From an uncultured Candidatus Saccharibacteria bacterium (GTDB lineage Bacteria; Patescibacteriota; Saccharimonadia; Saccharimonadales; CAIOMD01), in the NCBI GenBank assembly GCA_964566135.1, contig CAZMHM010000005.1, positions 7,995 through 71,994 on the forward strand: a stretch of 64,000 nt of DNA. The letters run 5' to 3'. Below are positions 3,048 through 55,545 of the stretch, in pieces (the first letter of the stretch is position 1; the number at the start of each line of letters is the position of its first letter). A model generated the notes under the pieces. The model had not been told where the DNA came from. It was given only the letters and a program-made list of their open reading frames with translations, and made no database searches. A program made the translations under genes and the position numbers.

Positions 3048-4838
3048 TTACGCGTTATCGGACGCTGCCACCCTATTAACTTCTGATAATGTCGTTCTGC
3101 CGGCTAAAGCTTTAAAGTAGCCGTCTTCGCGCATGTTTATCATGCCCTGTTCTTGTGCCTTTGCCTGAATCTCGGCACTTGTTGCTCGTTTGATAATAAG
3201 ATCTTGAATATCTTCTGTGACATTAAAGACTTCATATAAACCAAGCCGCCCCTTATATCCACTTGGATTGCTAGGCGTGGACGTACCCTTAAACAAAGTA
3301 TAAGCGTTTTGGCCGGCTAGTGGCAAGTCGCCATAACCAAAATCTTCTACGGCTGCTTTCTTTTCTTCCTCTGTTTTCGGTAATAAACCGCCAAGGGTTG
3401 CTTCTATTGCGGCGACCTCGGTCTTGCTGGCATCATATTTTTCAGGCTCACCAGCAATACGCCTCACTAGACGCTGACCAATAACGGTACGTACGGTACT
3501 GGCAATCAAAAACGGTTCGATATCCATATCAAGTAAACGTGGCAGAATTCCGGCAGCACTGTTAGTGTGTAGCGTGCTGAGCACAAGGTGTCCGGTAAGC
3601 GCCGCCTGCACCGCTAGCTGGGCCGTTTCTTTATCGCGAATTTCCCCCACCATCACCACGTCGGGGTCTTGGCGTAGAATACTACGCAAACCAGATGCAA
3701 ACGTTAAGCCAACGTCTGCGTTAACCTGAATCTGATTGATGCCGTCCATTTTATATTCAACCGGGTCTTCTAATGTAACAATATTTATCTCATCACTCTT
3801 TATCTCTTGAATAAGTGCGTACAGGCTGGTTGACTTACCAGAACCAGTAGGTCCAGAGGTCAAAATCATACCATTTGAGTTTTTAATGCCTTCGCGTATT
3901 GTACGCAGCGCCCGACCACTATAACCCATATCTTCGAGCTTCAGGCTCGTACCACTCTTATCGAGTAAACGAATAACTACTTGCTCACCCCATACAACTG
4001 GGCTAATGGCGATACGAAGGTCAATGGGTTTTTTGTCTACTAAAATTGTAAACTGGCCATCTTGCGGGATACGGTGCTCATCAATCTTAAGATTGGATAA
4101 AATTTTAATACGACTAACCAAAGGTGGTTCGGTTGCTTTGGGCAACTTCATAATTTCACGTAGCACGCCATCAACACGGCAGCGAATCTTAAGCTCTTTT
4201 TCGAGCGGTTCAATGTGGATGTCACTTGCCCGATTCTTGGCTGCATATTCGAGGATTGTCGAAAGCGCCTTACTAATAGGCGAATCTTGTACGATTGTCT
4301 GGATGTTCTTTTGATCAGACGCCTGACTTGGCTGCTCGCCATCTTTTGGCTTATCGCTATGGTCTCCAAGCGCATCGGCAACGTCTTTACCCACATCAAG
4401 CTGATACTGCTTTAAGACGTTCTCTATGCCCTCTTGGCTCGCCAGAAAGACCTTGAGCGGTCTACCAATACGATTAGCCAAAAAGTCTACCGCCTGCACA
4501 TTGTCTGCGTCAAGCATCGCGACAACCAGACGGTTTTGCATCTCGCCCAGTGGTACCGCCATGTAACGCTCGGCTACTTCTTGTGAAAGAAGTGCTAACA
4601 CCTTAGGGTTTACTCTGGCGTTAGTTAAGTTAACGTATGGTACTTTTGTAACCTGCGCGATTGTTTTGGTTAAGTCTTCGTTAGTTACGTGCCCTTCGCC
4701 GATGAGAAGCGATAAAAATGGCTCGTTATTAGCTGTTGAACGCGCATGCAGTTGCTTAATGTCGGAATCACTAATAAGACCGTTTTTAACAAGTAGTTCC
4801 TCTACTTGTTTCTGGGTATCTGCCAATAGTACGCTCAC
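3048..4838 (-). CDS. pilB: Type IV pilus assembly ATPase PilB (GspE family)
   Basis: 596 aa with an N-terminal GspE-N/MshEN-like domain, Walker A GPTGSGKSTSLYAL, LRQDPDVVMVGEIRD and STLHTNSAAG. Confidence 0.92.
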   Translation of the reverse strand: MSVLLADTQKQVEELLVKNGLISDSDIKQLHARSTANNEPFLSLLIGEGHVTNEDLTKTIAQVTKVPYVNLTNARVNPKVLALLSQEVAERYMAVPLGEMQNRLVVAMLDADNVQAVDFLANRIGRPLKVFLASQEGIENVLKQYQLDVGKDVADALGDHSDKPKDGEQPSQASDQKNIQTIVQDSPISKALSTILEYAAKNRASDIHIEPLEKELKIRCRVDGVLREIMKLPKATEPPLVSRIKILSNLKIDEHRIPQDGQFTILVDKKPIDLRIAISPVVWGEQVVIRLLDKSGTSLKLEDMGYSGRALRTIREGIKNSNGMILTSGPTGSGKSTSLYALIQEIKSDEINIVTLEDPVEYKMDGINQIQVNADVGLTFASGLRSILRQDPDVVMVGEIRDKETAQLAVQAALTGHLVLSTLHTNSAAGILPRLLDMDIEPFLIASTVRTVIGQRLVRRIAGEPEKYDASKTEVAAIEATLGGLLPKTEEEKKAAVEDFGYGDLPLAGQNAYTLFKGTSTPSNPSGYKGRLGLYEVFNVTEDIQDLIIKRATSAEIQAKAQEQGMINMREDGYFKALAGRTTLSEVNRVAASDNA

Positions 4839-10922: not shown

Positions 10923-12005
10923 ATGAGTTTATCTATCGGAATTGTTGGCTTGCCCAACGTTGGCAAGTCCACCCTGTTTAATGCGTTAACGAACAATAAT
11001 ATTTTGGCCGCGAACTATCCGTTCGCAACAATCGAGCCAAATACAGGCATCGTGCCCGTACCAGACCCACGGCTCGAAAAGCTTGCTGCAGTTTTTGGTA
11101 GCAAAAAAATCTTACCCGCAACAGTAGAATTTACTGATATTGCAGGCCTCGTTGCAGGTGCCAGCGAGGGTGAAGGTTTGGGTAATAAGTTCTTGAGCCA
11201 TATTCGTGAATGCGCGGCTATCGTGCAAGTAGTGCGTGATTTTACCGACCCAAATGTTATCCATGTCGATAACGAGCTTCACCCCGATAATGATATCGAT
11301 GTTATTAACACCGAGCTCGTTCTGGCAGATTTACAGACTATTGATAAGGTACTGCCACGCGTCCAAAAAGAGGCCCGTGCCGATACTAAAAAGAAACCAT
11401 TTGCCGATGCTCTAGCAACTGCGCATGCGCTACTCGATGCGGGCACTCCTATATATAATGACGAAAAACTCCGTACTACGATTGCCGAATATAAAGAGCT
11501 ACAGCTCTTAACTGCAAAACCGATAATTTATTTGTTCAATGTTGATGAAGCGGCCTTAACAGATACAGCAAAGCAAGCCGAGCTTGCAAAACTTGTAGCA
11601 CCAAGTCGGGCCTTATTTGTTAATGCAAAATTAGAAGATGAATTACGAAGTCTAGACGAAGCCGATCGAACCGAGATGCTTCAAGAATACGGCATTACCG
11701 AATCTGGCTTAATTCAGCTCATCCACGCTGCCTACGAAACACTTGGCTTACAAAGTTACCTAACCGCAGGCGAACAAGAAGTTCGCGCCTGGACTATCCC
11801 TACTGGCGCAACTGCCCCACAAGCTGCAGGTGTCATTCATGGCGATTTTGAGCGCGGTTTTATTGCTGCTGACATTGTTGATTATGATGATTTGATTGCG
11901 GCTGGTTCACGCTCAGCTGCTCGGACTGCCGGAAAAATGCGTACCGAAGGCAAAACCTACGTTATGCGGCCTGGTGATGTGGTTGAATTTAAGTTCAACG
12001 TTTAG
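10923..12005 (+). CDS. ychF: Ribosome-binding ATPase YchF (Obg-family GTPase fold)
   Basis: MSLSIGIVGLPNVGKSTLFNALT (G1), DIAGLVAGASEGEGLGN (G3) and a C-terminal TGS-like YVMRPGDVVEFKFNV. Length is 360 aa. Confidence 0.93.
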   Translation: MSLSIGIVGLPNVGKSTLFNALTNNNILAANYPFATIEPNTGIVPVPDPRLEKLAAVFGSKKILPATVEFTDIAGLVAGASEGEGLGNKFLSHIRECAAIVQVVRDFTDPNVIHVDNELHPDNDIDVINTELVLADLQTIDKVLPRVQKEARADTKKKPFADALATAHALLDAGTPIYNDEKLRTTIAEYKELQLLTAKPIIYLFNVDEAALTDTAKQAELAKLVAPSRALFVNAKLEDELRSLDEADRTEMLQEYGITESGLIQLIHAAYETLGLQSYLTAGEQEVRAWTIPTGATAPQAAGVIHGDFERGFIAADIVDYDDLIAAGSRSAARTAGKMRTEGKTYVMRPGDVVEFKFNV

Positions 12006-12074
12006 TTTTACGAGTATCTATCCACAACGTATTTGTAATGAAAGGATAGCCATAAAACTTGTTGAGGCGCCGAG

Positions 12075-12109
12075 GGCGCTCTATCTGCATGGCTTGCAGA
12101 AAGAGCGCC
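12075..12109 (-). terminator. GC-rich hairpin downstream of the first island gene
   Basis: GGCGCTCT (12075..12082) pairs with AGAGCGCC (12102..12109), with an inner CTGCA/TGCAG stem. On the minus strand it is followed after about 15 nt by GTTTTAT, a weak U-tract. Confidence 0.4.
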
Positions 12110-12124
12110 ACTCGGCTTCCCCAG

Positions 12125-13615
12125 CTACTTGACGATGGCGGTGTACGCCGAGAAGGCCTTCCCCTTGTTGTAGTAGGCCTTGACGGCCGTCACCAACAGG
12201 ATGACCCGGTGCTTGCGGTCTGCCTTGACGAGCTTGTAGCTCGACTTGATGGCGCCCTTGATGAGCACGAGCTTGGTACCCACCTTGCGGTACCACTGGT
12301 ACTTGTAGCTCGTGGGCTTGGGCGACCACACGCCGACCGACTTCACCTTGAGGGTGTAGCCGACCTTGGCCTTACCGACGATGGTCGGCTTGACCTTGGC
12401 GACCGGCGCCACGCCGAGCCCCACCTTGACGGTGGCAGTCGACTTGATGACCGCCTGCTGGTAGTTGGCGTCGTACAGCTCGACGTCACAGCGGACGTTC
12501 TTGCCGTACATCGCAGAGGTAAGCACAAGGCTGGACCCGACATGCACTGCGACACCGTTGACACGCCAGATGTAGTACAGCTCGACCGGCAGGCTGGCCG
12601 AAGTGGCGGCGGCCGTGACCGTCAGCTTGGAGCCAACAGCCGCCTTGCCGGACAGCTTCGGGAGAACCGTGTAGACCGGCGCCGTGCAGTTCGGGACAGT
12701 GCCACTCGTAGGCCCGCTGTCGGCGGTCTCGTAGAGAACACCATCGAGATACTGCTCGGCCGTGTAGGTCGAACCGGGCACGAGTCCCGTCGGGTTGATC
12801 GGCTCGGAAACGTACTCGCCAGCGGGGATGTTGGCGGGGCCGTAGACCGTGGTGCCGTTGATCTTCAGCTCGTAGGTGTGCCCACTCGGGTCGAGCGTCG
12901 CATCGATGTTCGCACCGATGATGGGCACGTACTGGTCGCAGAAGACGGACGTCACGTATGCCGACGTACACATGACCGACAGCGTCGCCGAGGTGAGCTC
13001 CGAGTCATCGGAAGCATCCCTGACAGACAGACTGAAGGTCGTGTCGCCCGACTGAGGTGTAAACGACCACGGGACGTCCTGGAACGCCTGCGTGAGCGAG
13101 ATCGGGGCGGACTGGGTAGCGATGCTACCCGGGCCGTTGCCCTGCGTGACGTAGTAGACCGACTTCGGGGTGGCGTAGCCGTTGATTCCCCCGAAAGTTC
13201 CGCTGGTACCGCAGGTCTGACCGCTCGGGTTGGCCTTGACCGTGTTGCAGTCGAAGGCGAACCACTGGTCGTAGTAGACCTCGCCGGTGTCAGCGTTCTT
13301 GACGATCCACTCGTAGGCGATGTCGCCCTGGTTGCTAGCGAACTCCCAGCCACCACCGCCCTGACCGCCGGCCGTGAGCACGACCGGATCAGGGAAGTTG
13401 AAGTGGCCACTGGGGTACTGCACCGTCTCGTTGACGATGTTGAGGTCCGTAGCGGTGTTGTTGACGATGGTCTGGACACCCGGACCCATGCCACACGAGA
13501 CCGTGTTGGTCACCGTGACATCACCGGGTGCTGCACTGGCGGGGGCGCTAACCCCCACCATGATGCCGAGCGCGACGGCGGGTGCCGTCAGCCATGCGAT
13601 GATTCGCCGATTCAT
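12125..13615 (-). CDS. Secreted GC-rich protein with two C-terminal Ig-like repeats (the last one very Lys-rich)
   Basis: 496 aa with signal peptide MNRRIIAWLTAPAVALGIMVGVSAPASA|AP and SD GGAGGT 6 nt before the ATG. Third codon positions are G/C-rich. The C-terminal repeats follow the pattern GKAxVGxxLxV...Y.YxW. Confidence 0.8.
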   Translation of the reverse strand: MNRRIIAWLTAPAVALGIMVGVSAPASAAPGDVTVTNTVSCGMGPGVQTIVNNTATDLNIVNETVQYPSGHFNFPDPVVLTAGGQGGGGWEFASNQGDIAYEWIVKNADTGEVYYDQWFAFDCNTVKANPSGQTCGTSGTFGGINGYATPKSVYYVTQGNGPGSIATQSAPISLTQAFQDVPWSFTPQSGDTTFSLSVRDASDDSELTSATLSVMCTSAYVTSVFCDQYVPIIGANIDATLDPSGHTYELKINGTTVYGPANIPAGEYVSEPINPTGLVPGSTYTAEQYLDGVLYETADSGPTSGTVPNCTAPVYTVLPKLSGKAAVGSKLTVTAAATSASLPVELYYIWRVNGVAVHVGSSLVLTSAMYGKNVRCDVELYDANYQQAVIKSTATVKVGLGVAPVAKVKPTIVGKAKVGYTLKVKSVGVWSPKPTSYKYQWYRKVGTKLVLIKGAIKSSYKLVKADRKHRVILLVTAVKAYYNKGKAFSAYTAIVK

Positions 13616-13714
13616 GACGAACCACCTCCAATCAAGTAGTTGGGTGTTAAGGACTTCGGTCTTTTGGGACCAAAGGTTCCGCTCCCTTCGGTCCCCCGAA
13701 GATTGCTGTGCTAA

Positions 13715-13743
13715 TTTATATCATATTTAAGGTGTTTTGTAAA
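13715..13743 (-). promoter_or_regulatory. Candidate promoter for the 12125..13615 gene
   Basis: Minus strand reads TTTACA (13743..13738), 17 nt, then TGATATAAA (13723..13715), in an AT-rich patch between the two GC-rich genes. Confidence 0.45.
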
Positions 13744-13758
13744 TTATGAGCAGGCATG

Positions 13759-13781
13759 AAAAAAACCTACCAAACGGTAGG
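13759..13781 (-). terminator. Rho-independent terminator of the LPXTG gene
   Basis: The minus-strand RNA reads CCUACC-GUUU-GGUAGG followed by seven U (plus-strand A-run 13759..13765). Confidence 0.75.
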
Positions 13782-13792
13782 CGGATGTGCCC

Positions 13793-13826
13793 GGGTGGGC
13801 GCGTAGTATGTACTACGCGCCCACCC
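13793..13826 (-). repeat. Perfect 16-bp inverted repeat (long GC hairpin) just after the LPXTG gene stop
   Basis: GGGTGGGCGCGTAGTA (13793..13808), then tg, then TACTACGCGCCCACCC (13811..13826). The arms are exact reverse complements. Confidence 0.85.
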
Positions 13827-13839
13827 AGAGCGATGTCGG

Positions 13840-15093
13840 TTACGGGGCCGCGGGGGCCTCGGTACGACGACGCGAGATCAGCATCAGCAGAGTGCCGACA
13901 GCCAGCAGACCAGCGGCGATGGCGAGCTCCTGGGAGCTCACCGCCCCAGTCTGAGGCAGCGTCGACGGCGGGGTCTTGGTCGGCGTCTGCGGCACGGTGC
14001 AGTTGGCGGTGATGGTCTTCTGGGCCAGTTCTTCACCGTTGTACTTCACCGTGATGGTGACCTTCTGACCCACCTTCAGCGGAACCGGAACCGTGATGCT
14101 CTTGCCGAGCGCCACAGTGACGGTCTTCTTGAACCCGATGGACGACGTCACCACGACGGTGACGTTGGTGTCCTCCTGGACGGTCTTCGACGGCAGGTTC
14201 GCGACCGACGTCGTGTTGACGATGGTCGCATAGGCCAGCGGCCCATCCCCGTCCGTGCAGACCGCCTTGCTGATGGCGGCCGTAGCGGTCGGAGGAAGAA
14301 CCTCCGGCCCACACTTCTCGGACGAGAACGTGTCCGTGAGCTCGAGCTGCACCTCACCCTCGAAGAACGCCGTCACCGTGACGGAGACGTTGCCTTCAAA
14401 CGGCAGGATGACCTCCTCGACCTTGCCCGCCTCGACGGACTTCTCGATCTGCTGGCCATCACTGGCCTTCAGGCGATAGAGCACCGTCGCGTTGTGCTGA
14501 GGAGTTGCCTCGCTCATGCTGTTGTCGAGCTGTCCAACGATCGAAGCACCACCCGCCTCACAGATCGAGGTGAGCTGCGCCTTGGGCGAGACCACCGGCT
14601 GCTTGATGCAGCTGGCGGGCGCGTCTTGCGCATAGGTGTTCGGACCCTTGCTCAAATTGCTGACGAACTTGGGCTCGTAGGGCTTGCCCGGCGCCGTCAG
14701 GGTCTTGCTCGGCTGCGGCTCTTCGCCGTAGCCCGCGTAGGCATCGCGCTGGCCGCAGCCAGCGGGTGCAGACACCGTCACGGAGTCACCGGGGTTCTGA
14801 AGCGAACCACGGTTCACACCGCTGAGCGTCTGCGGCCACATCCCCGCGTCGGGGTTGTCGAAGCTGTAGAGCGCGACACCGATGTAGAACTTCTTGCAGA
14901 GCGGCTTCTCGCCGCCGAGGGTGACCTTGACCGTGCCAGTGGTGCCATCCCAGGTGTGGGACAGAACCGCCTTGCTGGCGTCGACGCAGTCGTACTCGCT
15001 TGCGGATGCCGAAGGCACCACCACGAACAGGCTCGCGACGCAGGCAACGACAAGCGCGCCCAGCATCGCAATGAGCCGTTTGATGCGGTCCAT
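13840..15093 (-). CDS. LPXTG cell-wall-anchored surface protein (GC-rich)
   Basis: 417 aa with signal peptide ...LFVVVPSASA|SE. The C-terminus LPQTG + AVSSQELAIAAGLLAVGTLLMLI + SRRR is a canonical sortase sorting signal. Codon usage is G/C-ending. Confidence 0.85.
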   Translation of the reverse strand: MDRIKRLIAMLGALVVACVASLFVVVPSASASEYDCVDASKAVLSHTWDGTTGTVKVTLGGEKPLCKKFYIGVALYSFDNPDAGMWPQTLSGVNRGSLQNPGDSVTVSAPAGCGQRDAYAGYGEEPQPSKTLTAPGKPYEPKFVSNLSKGPNTYAQDAPASCIKQPVVSPKAQLTSICEAGGASIVGQLDNSMSEATPQHNATVLYRLKASDGQQIEKSVEAGKVEEVILPFEGNVSVTVTAFFEGEVQLELTDTFSSEKCGPEVLPPTATAAISKAVCTDGDGPLAYATIVNTTSVANLPSKTVQEDTNVTVVVTSSIGFKKTVTVALGKSITVPVPLKVGQKVTITVKYNGEELAQKTITANCTVPQTPTKTPPSTLPQTGAVSSQELAIAAGLLAVGTLLMLISRRRTEAPAAP

Positions 15094-15206
15094 AGCTGAT
15101 AATCCAATCTCGCGAATTGTGAATGTCGGTGTTACCCGACTTCGGGGATTATCCCCGGTGCTCCCTCATCACCCTCACACAGTGACGAGTGACAAAAGCA
15201 ATACAT

Positions 15207-15236
15207 ATTATAGCATAAATTATACTAATTTGTCAA
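15207..15236 (-). promoter_or_regulatory. Candidate promoter for the LPXTG gene
   Basis: Minus strand reads TTGACA (15236..15231), 18 nt, then TGCTATAAT (15215..15207). It begins 4 nt after the stop of the upstream native gene and leaves a leader of about 105 nt. Confidence 0.5.
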
Positions 15237-15239
15237 TTA

Positions 15240-15794
15240 CTAACCCCTAAAGAATTCTATAATTCGAGCACCAAAGCGTCTCGTGTTTGTGGTATTCTTT
15301 TTTTCGTAAAAAGATACCAATCGCTCTTGGAAAATACTAGTATATTCATCAGCACTGATTGGCCGAAGGTCTTCGACATGTCGTTCGAGCATACCAAGTT
15401 TATACGGATCTATAACTGGAATAGCTGGACTAATCACTGGTGCCGGTACGGTATACCGTACAACGGTACGCATCTGCAGATTATCGGTACCAAGTGGCAC
15501 CATTAGCCGCATTTCATCAGATAATGCAGCGCCAAACCGCGCTTTTAGCGGGTTCCATGTATCAGGGATAAATGTATATTGTTCGCCTGCTACCAGGTCT
15601 TCAATGTACACTTTGGCACAATTGCCTGCTGGGGTCGCTACAATAGCATGCGGCAAGCCAAGTTGATGAGGATTTGGTGGCTGAATTAAGTCCTGTTGTT
15701 TTGCGCGACGCACTGCATCGCCAATACCAATCACAATATTCATAACCGCATCATGATTTTTAGCTTCTACGAGTGGTAGCTGATCGATAGACAT
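15240..15794 (-). CDS. Hypothetical protein
   Basis: 184-aa ORF with native AT-leaning composition. I recognised no motif. Confidence 0.5.
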   Translation of the reverse strand: MSIDQLPLVEAKNHDAVMNIVIGIGDAVRRAKQQDLIQPPNPHQLGLPHAIVATPAGNCAKVYIEDLVAGEQYTFIPDTWNPLKARFGAALSDEMRLMVPLGTDNLQMRTVVRYTVPAPVISPAIPVIDPYKLGMLERHVEDLRPISADEYTSIFQERLVSFYEKKNTTNTRRFGARIIEFFRG

Positions 15795-15843
15795 AGTACG
15801 TACTATCTAATGTACTACTAGAACATAAAATGTAAATGCGTAT

Positions 15844-16407
15844 CTATTGCCTGCTAACAAAGGCGGCCGTTACGGCATTGCCCAGTTTCTTAAGCGGACC
15901 ACGATTGTTTCTCTTTGAGATTGCCCTGCTTTCGGCTTCGGTAAGCGTTGCACCGGGTACTAGAGGCATTGCTTCTGCCTGCAGAACACCCATTGGTAGA
16001 AAGCCTCTATCGCGCTCAATCTCAGCCACGATGAACTCACTTCGCCTTGCTTCACTAACGGGTGTGGCAGCTGACAAGTTACCATTTAATTGGTAGATTT
16101 TATCGAGGGGTGTTTTTTGAGTGACTTCATCGACACCGCTGTCCCATACGATACCATTAGCATCAATAACATAACGAACGGTTCGCCCGGTTACTTTATC
16201 GATTACTGTTTCAGGACCCTTTTCGCCGGTGTACCCGCTCAGCGAATAAACCTGACCGTCATTGCTCTCAACAAGCGCAGGTGCACCCGGCTCGTCGCTC
16301 TTGAATCCTTGTTCGAATATTTTGGCAGTAACAGTACTGCTAAGATTTGCTACTGCAGATTCGTATGGTTGATTGTCACTATTTGGATTTGTTTGTTTTA
16401 TAGCCAT
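15844..16407 (-). CDS. Hypothetical protein
   Basis: 187-aa ORF with no TM segment or signal peptide. It is preceded by the stereotyped promoter at 16414..16442. Confidence 0.5.
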   Translation of the reverse strand: MAIKQTNPNSDNQPYESAVANLSSTVTAKIFEQGFKSDEPGAPALVESNDGQVYSLSGYTGEKGPETVIDKVTGRTVRYVIDANGIVWDSGVDEVTQKTPLDKIYQLNGNLSAATPVSEARRSEFIVAEIERDRGFLPMGVLQAEAMPLVPGATLTEAESRAISKRNNRGPLKKLGNAVTAAFVSRQ

Positions 16408-16413
16408 GAATTA

Positions 16414-16442
16414 ACATTAGCATTTTATTGCTATTTTGTCAA
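16414..16442 (-). promoter_or_regulatory. Stereotyped promoter copy A (leaderless geometry)
   Basis: Minus strand reads ATTGACAAAATAGCAATAAAATGCTAATGT, followed by 6 nt (TAATTC) and the ATG at 16407. The -35 box lies inside the last codons of tlyA. Confidence 0.5.
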
Positions 16443-23201: not shown

Positions 23202-25274
23202 CTAGTCGGTGCGAGCGTCTTGGTTAAGAAGCTGCTGACGAAGTTGCGCAAAGCGACGCGCTTGGTTGGCTGCTTCGTCTTTAGCGGCTTCTTCAGGGCT
23301 CTTGTTGCTATTGTTATTGCCAGGCTTACCCTCTGGGCCATTTTGGCCAGGAGCTTTGCCAACAACGTTAATAACAGGTATCACAATTGGTGAGCGTTGC
23401 GTCTTTTCGTACAAGAAATGGGTTACATGTTCTTTGATTTCTTGCTTGAACCTATCAAGGTCAACGCGCTTGAATCGTTGCTGGACAGCACGACGGAGTT
23501 CATTACGAAGCTCGGTCATAAGATCCTCGTTATCTCGCATGTAGATAAAACCACGGCTAATGATATCGGGGCTTGTCATGCTTGTACCAGTTTTGCGGTC
23601 GACGGTTAAGACAACTGCAACAATACCGTCTTGCGCCATCATAATGCGATCCTTAACAACTACGTTGCTTACAATCGCACCAGTTTGGTCAACAAGCACA
23701 GTACCATGAGGCACTTGGCCGAGATGTTCCATCTTATCGCCCGTAAATGCTAGAACGTCACCGTTTTCGGCATTATATGTGTGATTACGTGGAATACCCT
23801 GTTCGATTGCAATCTCGGCGTGACGCTGTTTAGAGCGATACGAACCGTAAATTGGCACGAAGAACTTTGGCTTCATGACATCAATCATTTCGCGATATTC
23901 TTCGATACTTGCGTGACCTGAAACGTGCAGCGGACCGCAACCGTCAAGATCGTGTGTCGTGTGCTGAAATACGTGTACACCCTTACGCATAAGATCATCA
24001 ACCATAGCGCCAATAAGTGCATCGTTACCTGTTTCTGGGATAGGTGTCGAACTAAGTACGACGGTATCTTGTGGCTTCATCTTGACGTGACGGTGGTCGC
24101 CAGTACTCATACGCATTAGCGCAGAACTTGGCTCACCCTGGCCACCAGTACAGATAACAATAACTTTGTCATCAGGTAGCGTGTTGGCGCTGGCAATCGG
24201 AATAAAGGTACCCTTTGGTACTTTCACAAAGCCATGGCGCACGGCCATTTCGAGTGTGCTCATCATGCTACGGCCATCAAGTGCAATTTTGCGACCATGA
24301 TGTGCGGCAGCATTAATAATCATCTGGATACGGTTAATATTGGTCGAGAAAACTGCTACGAATACACGGCCTGGTGCTTGATCTAAAATCTGCACATAGC
24401 TTGATTCGATAGTGCTTTCACTTGGCGTGCGACCAGCACGTTCGGTAGTGGTACTTTCTGAAAGTAGCACCAACACACCCTCGTTACCAAGCTCTTTTAA
24501 GCGCTCCATATCGGTGCGTTCGTGGTCGAGTGGTTCTGGGTCAAACCGGAAGTCACCGGTGTTAACAACACGGCCAACTGGTGTATCGACAACCACTACG
24601 GTTGAACCAGGAATAGAGTGCGTTACACGTACAAGTTCGATAAAGAAGCTGCCAACCTTAAGGCGCTCGTGCGTATTTTCGTTCATAACGATAGTTTGCA
24701 TTTCGAAGCCTTCGGGCATTGGCAAGCCAAAGTTCTCGAAGATTTCTTCGACACGCCCAATGGTAAATTTACTACCATATACTGGCGCTGGTGCCTTTGG
24801 AATGATGTGTGGCAAGCCACCGATATGGTCAAGGTGACCATGGGTAATCACGTAGCCACGCAATTTATGCTTAATCGATTCGAGATAGCTCGTATCGGCA
24901 ATACCATAGTTAATACCTGGCAAATCAACACCAAGGTCGTTACCGGCGTCAATCACGATGGCGTCGTTTTGGAACTCGAGCAACATCATGTTTTTTGAGC
25001 CACCACCGTCCATACCACCGAGACCGATGATTTTAAGACGAGGCGTGTCATCTATCGTGTTAGCACGATTTTCAATCTTGTTTGCTGACGCATCAAGATA
25101 TTCGTTGGCTAATTTGTTAGCCATTTCAGCATTGCGTTTTTGGGCGCGAATAGCTGCTCCACGCGACACGGTACGTGCCGGTGAAGAAATATTGTTGGGT
25201 TTTTGGCCGCCGCGTGAGTTTTGTGACCTATTGCCACTTTGCCCACCGCGAGGCCGATTAGTTTGTTCGTTCAT
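23202..25274 (-). CDS. rnj: Ribonuclease J (beta-CASP metallo-beta-lactamase)
   Basis: ITHGHLDHIGGLPH (the HxHxDH motif), a beta-CASP region, and basic low-complexity N- and C-terminal extensions. Length is 690 aa. Confidence 0.88.
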   Translation of the reverse strand: MNEQTNRPRGGQSGNRSQNSRGGQKPNNISSPARTVSRGAAIRAQKRNAEMANKLANEYLDASANKIENRANTIDDTPRLKIIGLGGMDGGGSKNMMLLEFQNDAIVIDAGNDLGVDLPGINYGIADTSYLESIKHKLRGYVITHGHLDHIGGLPHIIPKAPAPVYGSKFTIGRVEEIFENFGLPMPEGFEMQTIVMNENTHERLKVGSFFIELVRVTHSIPGSTVVVVDTPVGRVVNTGDFRFDPEPLDHERTDMERLKELGNEGVLVLLSESTTTERAGRTPSESTIESSYVQILDQAPGRVFVAVFSTNINRIQMIINAAAHHGRKIALDGRSMMSTLEMAVRHGFVKVPKGTFIPIASANTLPDDKVIVICTGGQGEPSSALMRMSTGDHRHVKMKPQDTVVLSSTPIPETGNDALIGAMVDDLMRKGVHVFQHTTHDLDGCGPLHVSGHASIEEYREMIDVMKPKFFVPIYGSYRSKQRHAEIAIEQGIPRNHTYNAENGDVLAFTGDKMEHLGQVPHGTVLVDQTGAIVSNVVVKDRIMMAQDGIVAVVLTVDRKTGTSMTSPDIISRGFIYMRDNEDLMTELRNELRRAVQQRFKRVDLDRFKQEIKEHVTHFLYEKTQRSPIVIPVINVVGKAPGQNGPEGKPGNNNSNKSPEEAAKDEAANQARRFAQLRQQLLNQDARTD

Positions 25275-55516: not shown

Positions 55517-55545
55517 AAATTAGCACAAAGTTGCTATTTTGTCAA
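55517..55545 (-). promoter_or_regulatory. Stereotyped promoter copy C (leaderless geometry)
   Basis: Minus strand reads ATTGACAAAATAGCAACTTTGTGCTAATTT, followed by 6 nt (ATATTT) and ATG 55510. The -35 box lies inside the last codons of the cyclase gene. Confidence 0.5.

Follow-up and report, generated by a model that had tools for sequence, protein, structure and literature searches.

We analysed a 64,000-nt stretch of DNA (the window) from an uncultured Candidatus Saccharibacteria bacterium, in which two GC-rich genes for secreted proteins, here called A and B, lie next to each other on the minus strand beside ychF, each with its own promoter and 5′ leader. The window has a GC content of about 45% and comes from a Saccharibacteria genome. 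The 80 YchF loci closest to it were found in metagenome-assembled genomes of Saccharibacteria or related Patescibacteria, except for a few records labelled "bacterium" or assigned to another phylum (L021 and L032; L numbers denote the related loci). An earlier, sequence-only reading had described each gene as an AT-rich promoter, a GC-rich leader with a shared motif, a coding sequence and a hairpin. The promoter and motif sequences quoted in it are present on the minus strand at the positions listed below, and the layout was confirmed: the promoter patch at 13710–13790 is 36% GC and the leaders are 51–54% GC, 99 nt (A) and 113 nt (B) separate the end of the −10 hexamer from the ATG, and a hairpin follows each coding sequence. 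Given a predicted transcription start about 7 nt after the −10 hexamer, the leaders would be approximately 93 nt (A) and 107 nt (B) long. The features are as follows.

12064–12109, minus strand: GC-rich hairpins after gene A, adjoining the 3′ end of ychF, with no clear U run
12125–13615, minus strand: gene A, encoding a 496-aa secreted protein with C-terminal immunoglobulin-like (AIR9-type) repeats; GC content at third codon positions (GC3) 0.86
13616–13708, minus strand: A-type structured 5′ leader, with a two-part hairpin at 13701–13654 (outer stem CUUCGG/CCGAAG, inner stem GGGACCGAAGG/CCUUUGGUCCC)
13623–13629, minus strand: strong Shine-Dalgarno (SD) sequence of leader A, GGAGGUG
13634–13650, minus strand: CA-rich tail of leader A, UUAACACCCAACUACUU
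13643–13659, minus strand: motif of the sequence-only reading in leader A, CCGAAGTCCTTAACACC
13715–13743, minus strand: promoter of gene A, with TTTACA (13743–13738), a 17-nt spacer including TGa, and TATAAA (13720–13715); scores 10/12
13759–13828, minus strand: 3′ end of the B unit, a long GC-rich hairpin (13828–13791) followed by an intrinsic terminator hairpin with a U run (13782–13759)
13840–15093, minus strand: gene B, encoding a 417-aa secreted protein with a signal peptide and an LPQTG cell-wall anchor; GC3 0.85
15094–15200, minus strand: B-type structured 5′ leader, with hairpins P1 (15189–15165, loop GUGUGAG), P2 (15157–15143) and P3 (15140–15125) and a UUCACAA tail (15123–15117)
15103–15109, minus strand: weak SD region of leader B, GAUUGGA
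15128–15145, minus strand: motif of the sequence-only reading in leader B, CCGAAGTCGGGTAACACC
15207–15236, minus strand: promoter of gene B, with TTGACA (15236–15231), an 18-nt spacer and the extended −10 element TGcTATAAT (15215–15207); scores 12/12 with TG

The product of gene B has the make-up of a sortase-anchored protein, with a signal peptide, a C-terminal LPXTG motif, a hydrophobic segment and a basic tail (C-terminus LPQTG...RRR), and it matched PF00746 in Pfam (E=1.7e-5); its relatives carry an LAxTG anchor. Despite the LPQTG anchor, no sortase gene was found anywhere in the 64 kb; sortases adjoin the surface-protein genes at this locus in L079 and L080. The C-terminal repeats of gene A resemble GC-rich genes in L001 and L084. 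Proteins A and B returned no record in an exact look-up, and word-indexed homologue searches returned just two relatives of B and one weak relative of A, while a full HMMER search recovered 93 relatives of B. No relatives were found when a metagenome collection was scanned with the B alignment, which is a weak negative because the collection evidently did not contain even the contig of L001, and PDB chains searched by sequence with protein A and the profile of the B family gave no match. An open reading frame of 526 aa (12059–13639, plus strand), rich in Arg, Asp and Gly, runs antisense to gene A and most likely arises from the GC-rich composition without being a gene.

The promoters of A and B are native in type, as the sequence-only reading had proposed. 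Both have hexamers 17 or 18 nt apart and a TGn directly upstream of the −10 hexamer, as in extended −10 promoters of the sigma-70 type. The pattern TTGACAN14-16TGNTANNNT occurs four times in the window against 0.06 expected, and the three copies other than that of B precede native genes at 16442, 53014 and 55545, with the common start TTGACAAAAyAG and the TGCTAnnnT form of the −10 region. Orthologous promoters were found in relatives. The promoter of B is kept upstream of its relatives in L001, L083, L084, L090, L096 and L103. The promoter of A, together with the U run of the preceding terminator, aligns with the promoter (TTGACA...TGcTAccAT) of a native, AT-rich 217-aa gene in L001, and the latter promoter is also present in L084 and L090. 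Gene A and its GC-rich leader therefore sit behind a resident promoter that serves another gene in relatives. At two native promoters of the window with the form TTGACAAAATAGCAA...TGCTAATnT (16414–16442 and 55517–55545, both on the minus strand), the ATG lies 6 nt after the −10 hexamer, so that the mRNAs from these promoters are probably leaderless, unlike those of A and B. The TT[C/A/T]ACA tails of the leaders were also considered as internal −35 boxes; this was rejected on inspection of the sequence, with no −10-like hexamer at the right spacing.

Leader B has counterparts in five other lineages (L001, L083, L084, L090 and L103), whose B-family genes lie at the following positions.

L001, 7155–8402
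L083, 1570–2820
L084, 8001–9302
L090, 5001–6266
L103, 6001–7239

The six B-type leaders follow one plan: P1 with the loop GU[G/A]UGAG, a GAnGGnGCA joining segment (J12), P2, P3, a UU[C/U]ACA tail, the SD region and the start codon. P1 starts 7–17 nt after the −10 hexamer in all six, and nearly every lineage has its own P2 and P3 stem sequences. With L001 as its only source, a covariance model searched against 1.46 Mb recovered the leaders of L084 (3e-14), L090 (1e-9), the window (6e-9) and L083 (5e-7), with no other match of note; when five loci (18.8 kb) were searched separately, the same model recovered L103 at 2.7e-9. Among 57 GTGTGAG sites in the window and L001–L082, the hairpin with the GUGUGAG loop was confined to the B-type leaders of the window, L001 and L002, which is a copy of L001. 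RNAalifold on the window and L001 gave compensatory changes in P1 and P2. MAFFT and RNAalifold misregistered P2 and P3 of the B leaders, whose loop lengths differ, and a hand-made alignment of the stem arms was scored instead. Standard pairs made up 95% of the pair cells in this alignment compared to 70.6% after shuffling (0 of 500 shuffles as high), and 13 of the 20 pairs had changed on both sides, compared to 6.7 in shuffles. Slid controls paired at 35–52%. The arms of P3 paired with their own partners at 5.0 of 5 positions and with those of other lineages at 1.8 of 5. With homologues recovered by a structure-aware model and helices that covary, the B-type leader is a conserved structured RNA family.

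The conservation pattern raises the possibility that the leaders are true regulatory RNAs (riboswitch, protein-binding leader, thermosensor or attenuator), with the P1 loop and the tail acting as a sensor for a signal such as host contact. The unpaired parts of the B-type leader, namely the P1 loop, J12 and the UUCACAA tail, are conserved while the stems drift, and a conserved structured 5′ element of one gene family, with covarying helices and conserved loops, resembles the cis-regulatory leaders in Rfam, among them riboswitches, leaders of ribosomal-protein genes and orphan motifs that comparative genomics has found ahead of particular gene classes. The leaders differ from these in matching none of the 4227 Rfam models; no match was obtained in the window at gathering thresholds, only noise at E<=10 in 11900–15900, and none in L001, L079 or L080. 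The sequence-only reading had described mutually exclusive hairpins in leader B. The two segments concerned, GGGGAUAAUCCCC and CCCGAAGUCGGG, do overlap, but the minimum-free-energy fold consists of GGGG/CCCC (P2) and GUCGG/CCGAC (P3), and the alternative CCCG/CGGG hairpin is confined to the leader of the window, being impossible in L001, L083, L084, L090 and L103. Neither leader contains a terminator-like hairpin with a U run, no expression platform of an attenuator or riboswitch was recognised, and the SD is not consistently sequestered. A pseudoknot between the P1 loop and the tail was also tried. UGUGAG (15176–15182) is complementary to UUCACA (15118–15123, minus strand) over 6 bp in the window, L001, L084 and L090, but L083 and L103 have changed both sites without compensation, about 0.14 such pairings are expected by chance, and the pseudoknot was left as unsupported. 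On this evidence we regard a regulatory role of this kind as rather unlikely. A small open reading frame in leader B was likewise discarded, with its start inside the −10 region and no conservation.

Leader A is of another type. Its hairpin starts 13 nt after the −10 hexamer, and the fold has a z score of −2.2. A homologous leader was found at L093 1340–1440 (also in L096) on the 3′ side of a B-family gene, where a terminator is followed by a TTTACAAAATAG...TATAAT promoter with the same spacing as promoter A and by a leader of equal length. The L093 leader shares the outer stem CUUCGG/CCGAAG with leader A and has a matching inner stem, GCUGAAGGG/CCCUUCGGU, followed by UUUUCACAUUCUACUAC..GAUU..GGAGGU (z=−2.8), and its tail and SD blocks match those of leader A. 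These similarities make an A-type leader family probable, though not proven. BLAST of all leaders against 82 loci and the window gave no extra copies. A pattern scan of the metagenome collection for A-type leaders gave six matches, all in coding regions without a promoter, which were set aside as chance.

Central to the sequence-only reading was a motif common to both leaders, taken as a sign of a repeated leader or a shared control element. Under that proposal, a cis element of the form CCGAAGUC-N2/3-UAACACC would be the site of one regulator or small RNA, or the mark of a duplicated cassette, and A and B would be co-regulated post-transcriptionally. The motif is indeed present in both leaders, identical over 8+7 nt and placed 27 nt (A) and 34 nt (B) ahead of the ATG, and the 64 kb contain no third match (0 in 100 shuffles, in a test made post hoc). 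A second common block, GAUUGGA, lies 9–11 nt before each ATG; it overlaps the SD region and is therefore explained by ribosome binding. CCGAAG and the UU[A/C]ACA tail are kept in the A-type homologue L093, and a UUYACA-like, CA-rich stretch directly follows the last hairpin in both leader families, which may be a weak common theme, with −35 boxes of the same sequence inflating the background.

The evidence against a shared element came from several comparisons. In local alignments of leaders A and B, 3.7% of 5000 dinucleotide shuffles reached the observed score, which is marginal. The structural contexts of the motif differ: in leader B it covers the 3′ arm of P2, a 2-nt linker and all of P3, and in leader A the CCGAAG half forms the 3′ arm of the outer stem and the UAACACC half lies in the single-stranded tail. 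The motif is missing from the other five B-type leaders, which carry unrelated sequences at the same positions. Cross tests between the A and B covariance models gave at most 3.6 bits, even with filters off and on 241-nt targets. The relaxed form CCGA[AT]G-N2-10-TAACA gave 20 matches in 1.42 Mb, a chance level, mostly inside genes; a resemblance of the motif to the leader of L079/L080 was dropped because the relaxed form is so frequent by chance. As far as these comparisons can detect, leaders A and B are not homologous and represent two different families. The 15 shared bases are probably a coincidence, or at most a short conversion patch between neighbours, with no common operator or RNA element behind them, and we judge post-transcriptional co-regulation through the motif improbable.

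For the full-length relatives of B that were traced, the gene lies between tlyA and ychF wherever the contig reaches the flanks (L001, L084–L092 and L103/L104), and the full unit of promoter, leader, gene and terminator was found at tlyA-ychF in independent assemblies of at least six other Saccharibacteria lineages. The two-hairpin 3′ layout of the B unit, a long GC-rich hairpin with GGUGGGGCGCCC-type arms and a separate intrinsic terminator, also follows the B-family genes of L001, L083, L084, L090, L093 and L103. The GC-rich hairpins after gene A may likewise serve as a terminator.

The GC-richness of both genes could suggest that they arrived recently by horizontal transfer, or are contaminating DNA, from a donor of high GC content, for example an Actinobacteria host, with the leaders being 5′ untranslated regions (UTRs) of the donor placed behind resident promoters. 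GC3 is 0.85–0.86 in A and B compared to 0.34–0.51 in native genes of the window. Many LAxTG-anchored proteins, a Nocardioides cluster among them, are related to the N-terminal domain of B, which makes an actinobacterial origin of this domain plausible. The place of A is taken in relatives by an ordinary AT-rich gene with the same promoter, and an Rpf-like gene is present at the same locus in L039. A recent arrival does not fit the age of the B unit, however. Synteny of B, with its leader, promoter and terminators, extends over at least seven lineages, among which native proteins diverge by 7–35%. Full-length relatives of B were found in Saccharibacteria contexts only, and all those traced (P0002, P0004, P0005, P0006/P0095, P0096 and P0021) lie on Saccharibacteria-type contigs. 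The sequence-only reading had already argued against a contaminating host fragment, and the recurrence of the contig structure in independent assemblies bears this out.

Synonymous sites gave the same result. At four-fold degenerate sites, the window and L001 agree in 43.5% of positions for native genes and in 46% for B, near saturation in both cases, yet B keeps a GC content at these sites (GC4) of 0.83 in the window and 0.66 in L001. In every lineage the GC3 of the B family is high (0.72–0.905, compared to 0.19–0.51 in native genes). High GC4 at saturated sites means that the island is not the decaying scar of a recent transfer, and we consider transfer or contamination of that kind very improbable. 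The comparison indicates instead that the GC-richness of the B-family genes is maintained or renewed. Selection, biased conversion and repeated import are candidate causes. The "GC island" is thus an old syntenic feature, and the persistence of its odd codon composition beyond synonymous-site saturation raises the question of what keeps these genes GC-rich.

Within this conserved frame, the coding part of the locus varies. From tlyA through the promoter and into a 170-nt leader, L079 and L080 are 82–83% identical; this identity ends about 10 nt short of the ATG, and similarity resumes at the terminator on the ychF side. Between these two breakpoints lie unrelated surface-protein genes, each followed by a sortase-like gene (L079 11194–13119 and L080 11204–13487). 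L001 and L084 have the leader and the C-terminal half of B in common, but not the N-terminal domain. The gene order around B varies by lineage, with A-like genes after tlyA or after B, and in L053 and L039 the locus holds further genes for secreted proteins that are GC3-rich and have native promoters. Around a variable, GC3-rich cargo, the promoter, leader and terminator modules of tlyA-ychF stay fixed, and in this broader sense the term "cassette-like" used by the sequence-only reading holds; a shared cassette defined by the motif does not. At the DNA level, L001 7168–7916 and L084 8014–8792, which encode the N-terminal domain of B, could not be aligned, and the leader, C-terminal half and flanks are 77–84% identical; the domain appears to be either hypervariable or swapped.

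The arrangement resembles variable surface-protein loci, such as expression sites of antigenic variation and mosaic adhesins, in that the promoter, leader and terminator are fixed and the coding part is replaced (L079 vs L080), with an N-terminal domain of B that cannot be aligned between L001 and L084 and a gene order around B that varies. It differs in that the variation is between species and not within a clone, and in that no silent copies, recombinase or repeats were seen. With the gene cassettes of integrons, the units share a compact single-gene form and a 3′ hairpin each, a likeness in word only: the units described here carry individual promoters, are syntenic and have been inherited vertically, and neither an attC-type site nor an integrase was identified.

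Taking the evidence together, we favour, with moderate confidence, the interpretation that A and B are two separate expression units of a conserved surface-protein locus, whose leaders belong to two vertically conserved families and likely function in 5′ mRNA stabilisation and SD-led translation. In each unit, a resident extended −10 promoter of the sigma-70 type would drive a long structured 5′ UTR and, led by an SD, a GC3-rich gene whose product is secreted or anchored in the cell wall, with a GC-rich hairpin at the 3′ end. The first hairpin, within a few nucleotides of the predicted 5′ end, would shield the mRNA from 5′-end-dependent decay, a proposal which the RNase J gene in the window fits (23355–24752, minus strand; 80% identity over 466 aa to the homologue in L084). 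The unstructured tail and the SD would provide a ribosome loading site, which would be relevant in a genome where several native mRNAs appear leaderless, and the GC-rich 3′ hairpin would shield the other end. Stable, highly translated mRNAs for abundant surface proteins would be the outcome.

Leaders of this kind are known elsewhere. The Escherichia coli ompA 5′ UTR, the Bacillus subtilis aprE leader and the cryIIIA STAB-SD are 5′ UTR stem-loops that stabilise the mRNAs of abundant proteins, envelope or secreted ones. The S-layer slpA mRNA of Lactobacillus combines a strong promoter with a stabilising 5′ UTR stem-loop (PMC10221546), and the ompA 5′ UTR, STAB-SD and the aprE leader are named in the same connection by titles in the reference list of PMC3997798. 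The A and B units share with these systems a strong promoter, a leader of about 100 nt, a first hairpin at or near the predicted 5′ end, a downstream SD, a surface or secreted product, and a 5′-end-dependent RNase in the genome (here RNase J). They differ in that no sequence or covariance-model similarity to any described leader was found and that they belong to a Saccharibacteria genome with some apparently leaderless native mRNAs. The three hairpins and conserved unpaired motifs of the B-type leader also set it apart from passive stabilisers. Structured 5′ UTRs on surface-protein mRNAs are a known kind of element; the two leaders described here are uncatalogued.

Several points weigh against stabilising leaders of two families. 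Sequence conservation in three elements of the B-type leader, GU[G/A]UGAG in the P1 loop, GAnGGnGCA in J12 and UU[C/U]ACA in the tail, goes beyond what passive stabilisation would require and suggests that a specific partner binds there. For the P1 of the window, the minimum-free-energy fold is another register, in which a 12+4 bp stem carries a UGU loop. The alignment used to score covariation was fitted by hand to the hairpins and favours structure; the covariance-model matches are independent of it. The A-type family has two members, which differ only by wobble-type or one-sided stem changes, and L093, the best non-self match of the A-type covariance model R2, is marginal at 20.3 bits (E=0.12 over 1.47 Mb). 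Finally, we infer both the position of P1 at the mRNA 5′ end and the role as a stabiliser.

A bolder interpretation, which we regard as unlikely, is that tlyA-ychF is a dedicated expression site, in which fixed native promoters, undescribed leader RNAs and 3′ hairpins drive actinobacterial-type LAxTG/LPXTG proteins whose coding parts are exchanged between lineages. Host-like, GC-rich codon usage would be actively maintained, either through selection or because GC-rich donors, possibly Actinobacteria hosts, contribute to it by repeated import or gene conversion, and the leaders would be regulatory RNAs that link the expression of these host-interaction proteins to the epibiotic life cycle. Saccharibacteria are obligate epibionts, and surface proteins are obvious candidates for attachment to the host. 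To our knowledge, almost nothing is known about how gene expression is controlled in Saccharibacteria, and literature searches on Saccharibacteria promoters, leaders or GC-rich surface genes gave nothing specific. This locus offers a native promoter consensus, evidence of some leaderless native mRNAs and two conserved, uncatalogued structured leaders specific to GC3-rich surface-protein genes of the sortase type, and its promoters and leaders could serve as expression signals in the young genetic systems of the phylum. Of the results, the modular build of the locus and its lasting GC3 anomaly are the more surprising.

Two smaller features of the locus were noted in relatives. In L039, a GC3-rich secreted protein with an Rpf-like transglycosylase motif, as judged by eye, is encoded at 12276–12893 (minus strand), downstream of a native TGCTATATT promoter whose leader exceeds 200 nt. 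L001 has two copies of the 3′ tlyA end, on either side of a GC-rich piece that apparently forms a hairpin (3425–3646). A 45-nt core of this region (3504–3548) is 95.6% identical to a segment beside ychF in L084 (10843–10887), and the duplicated tlyA end and its core may represent a recombination footprint or a small mobile hairpin element.

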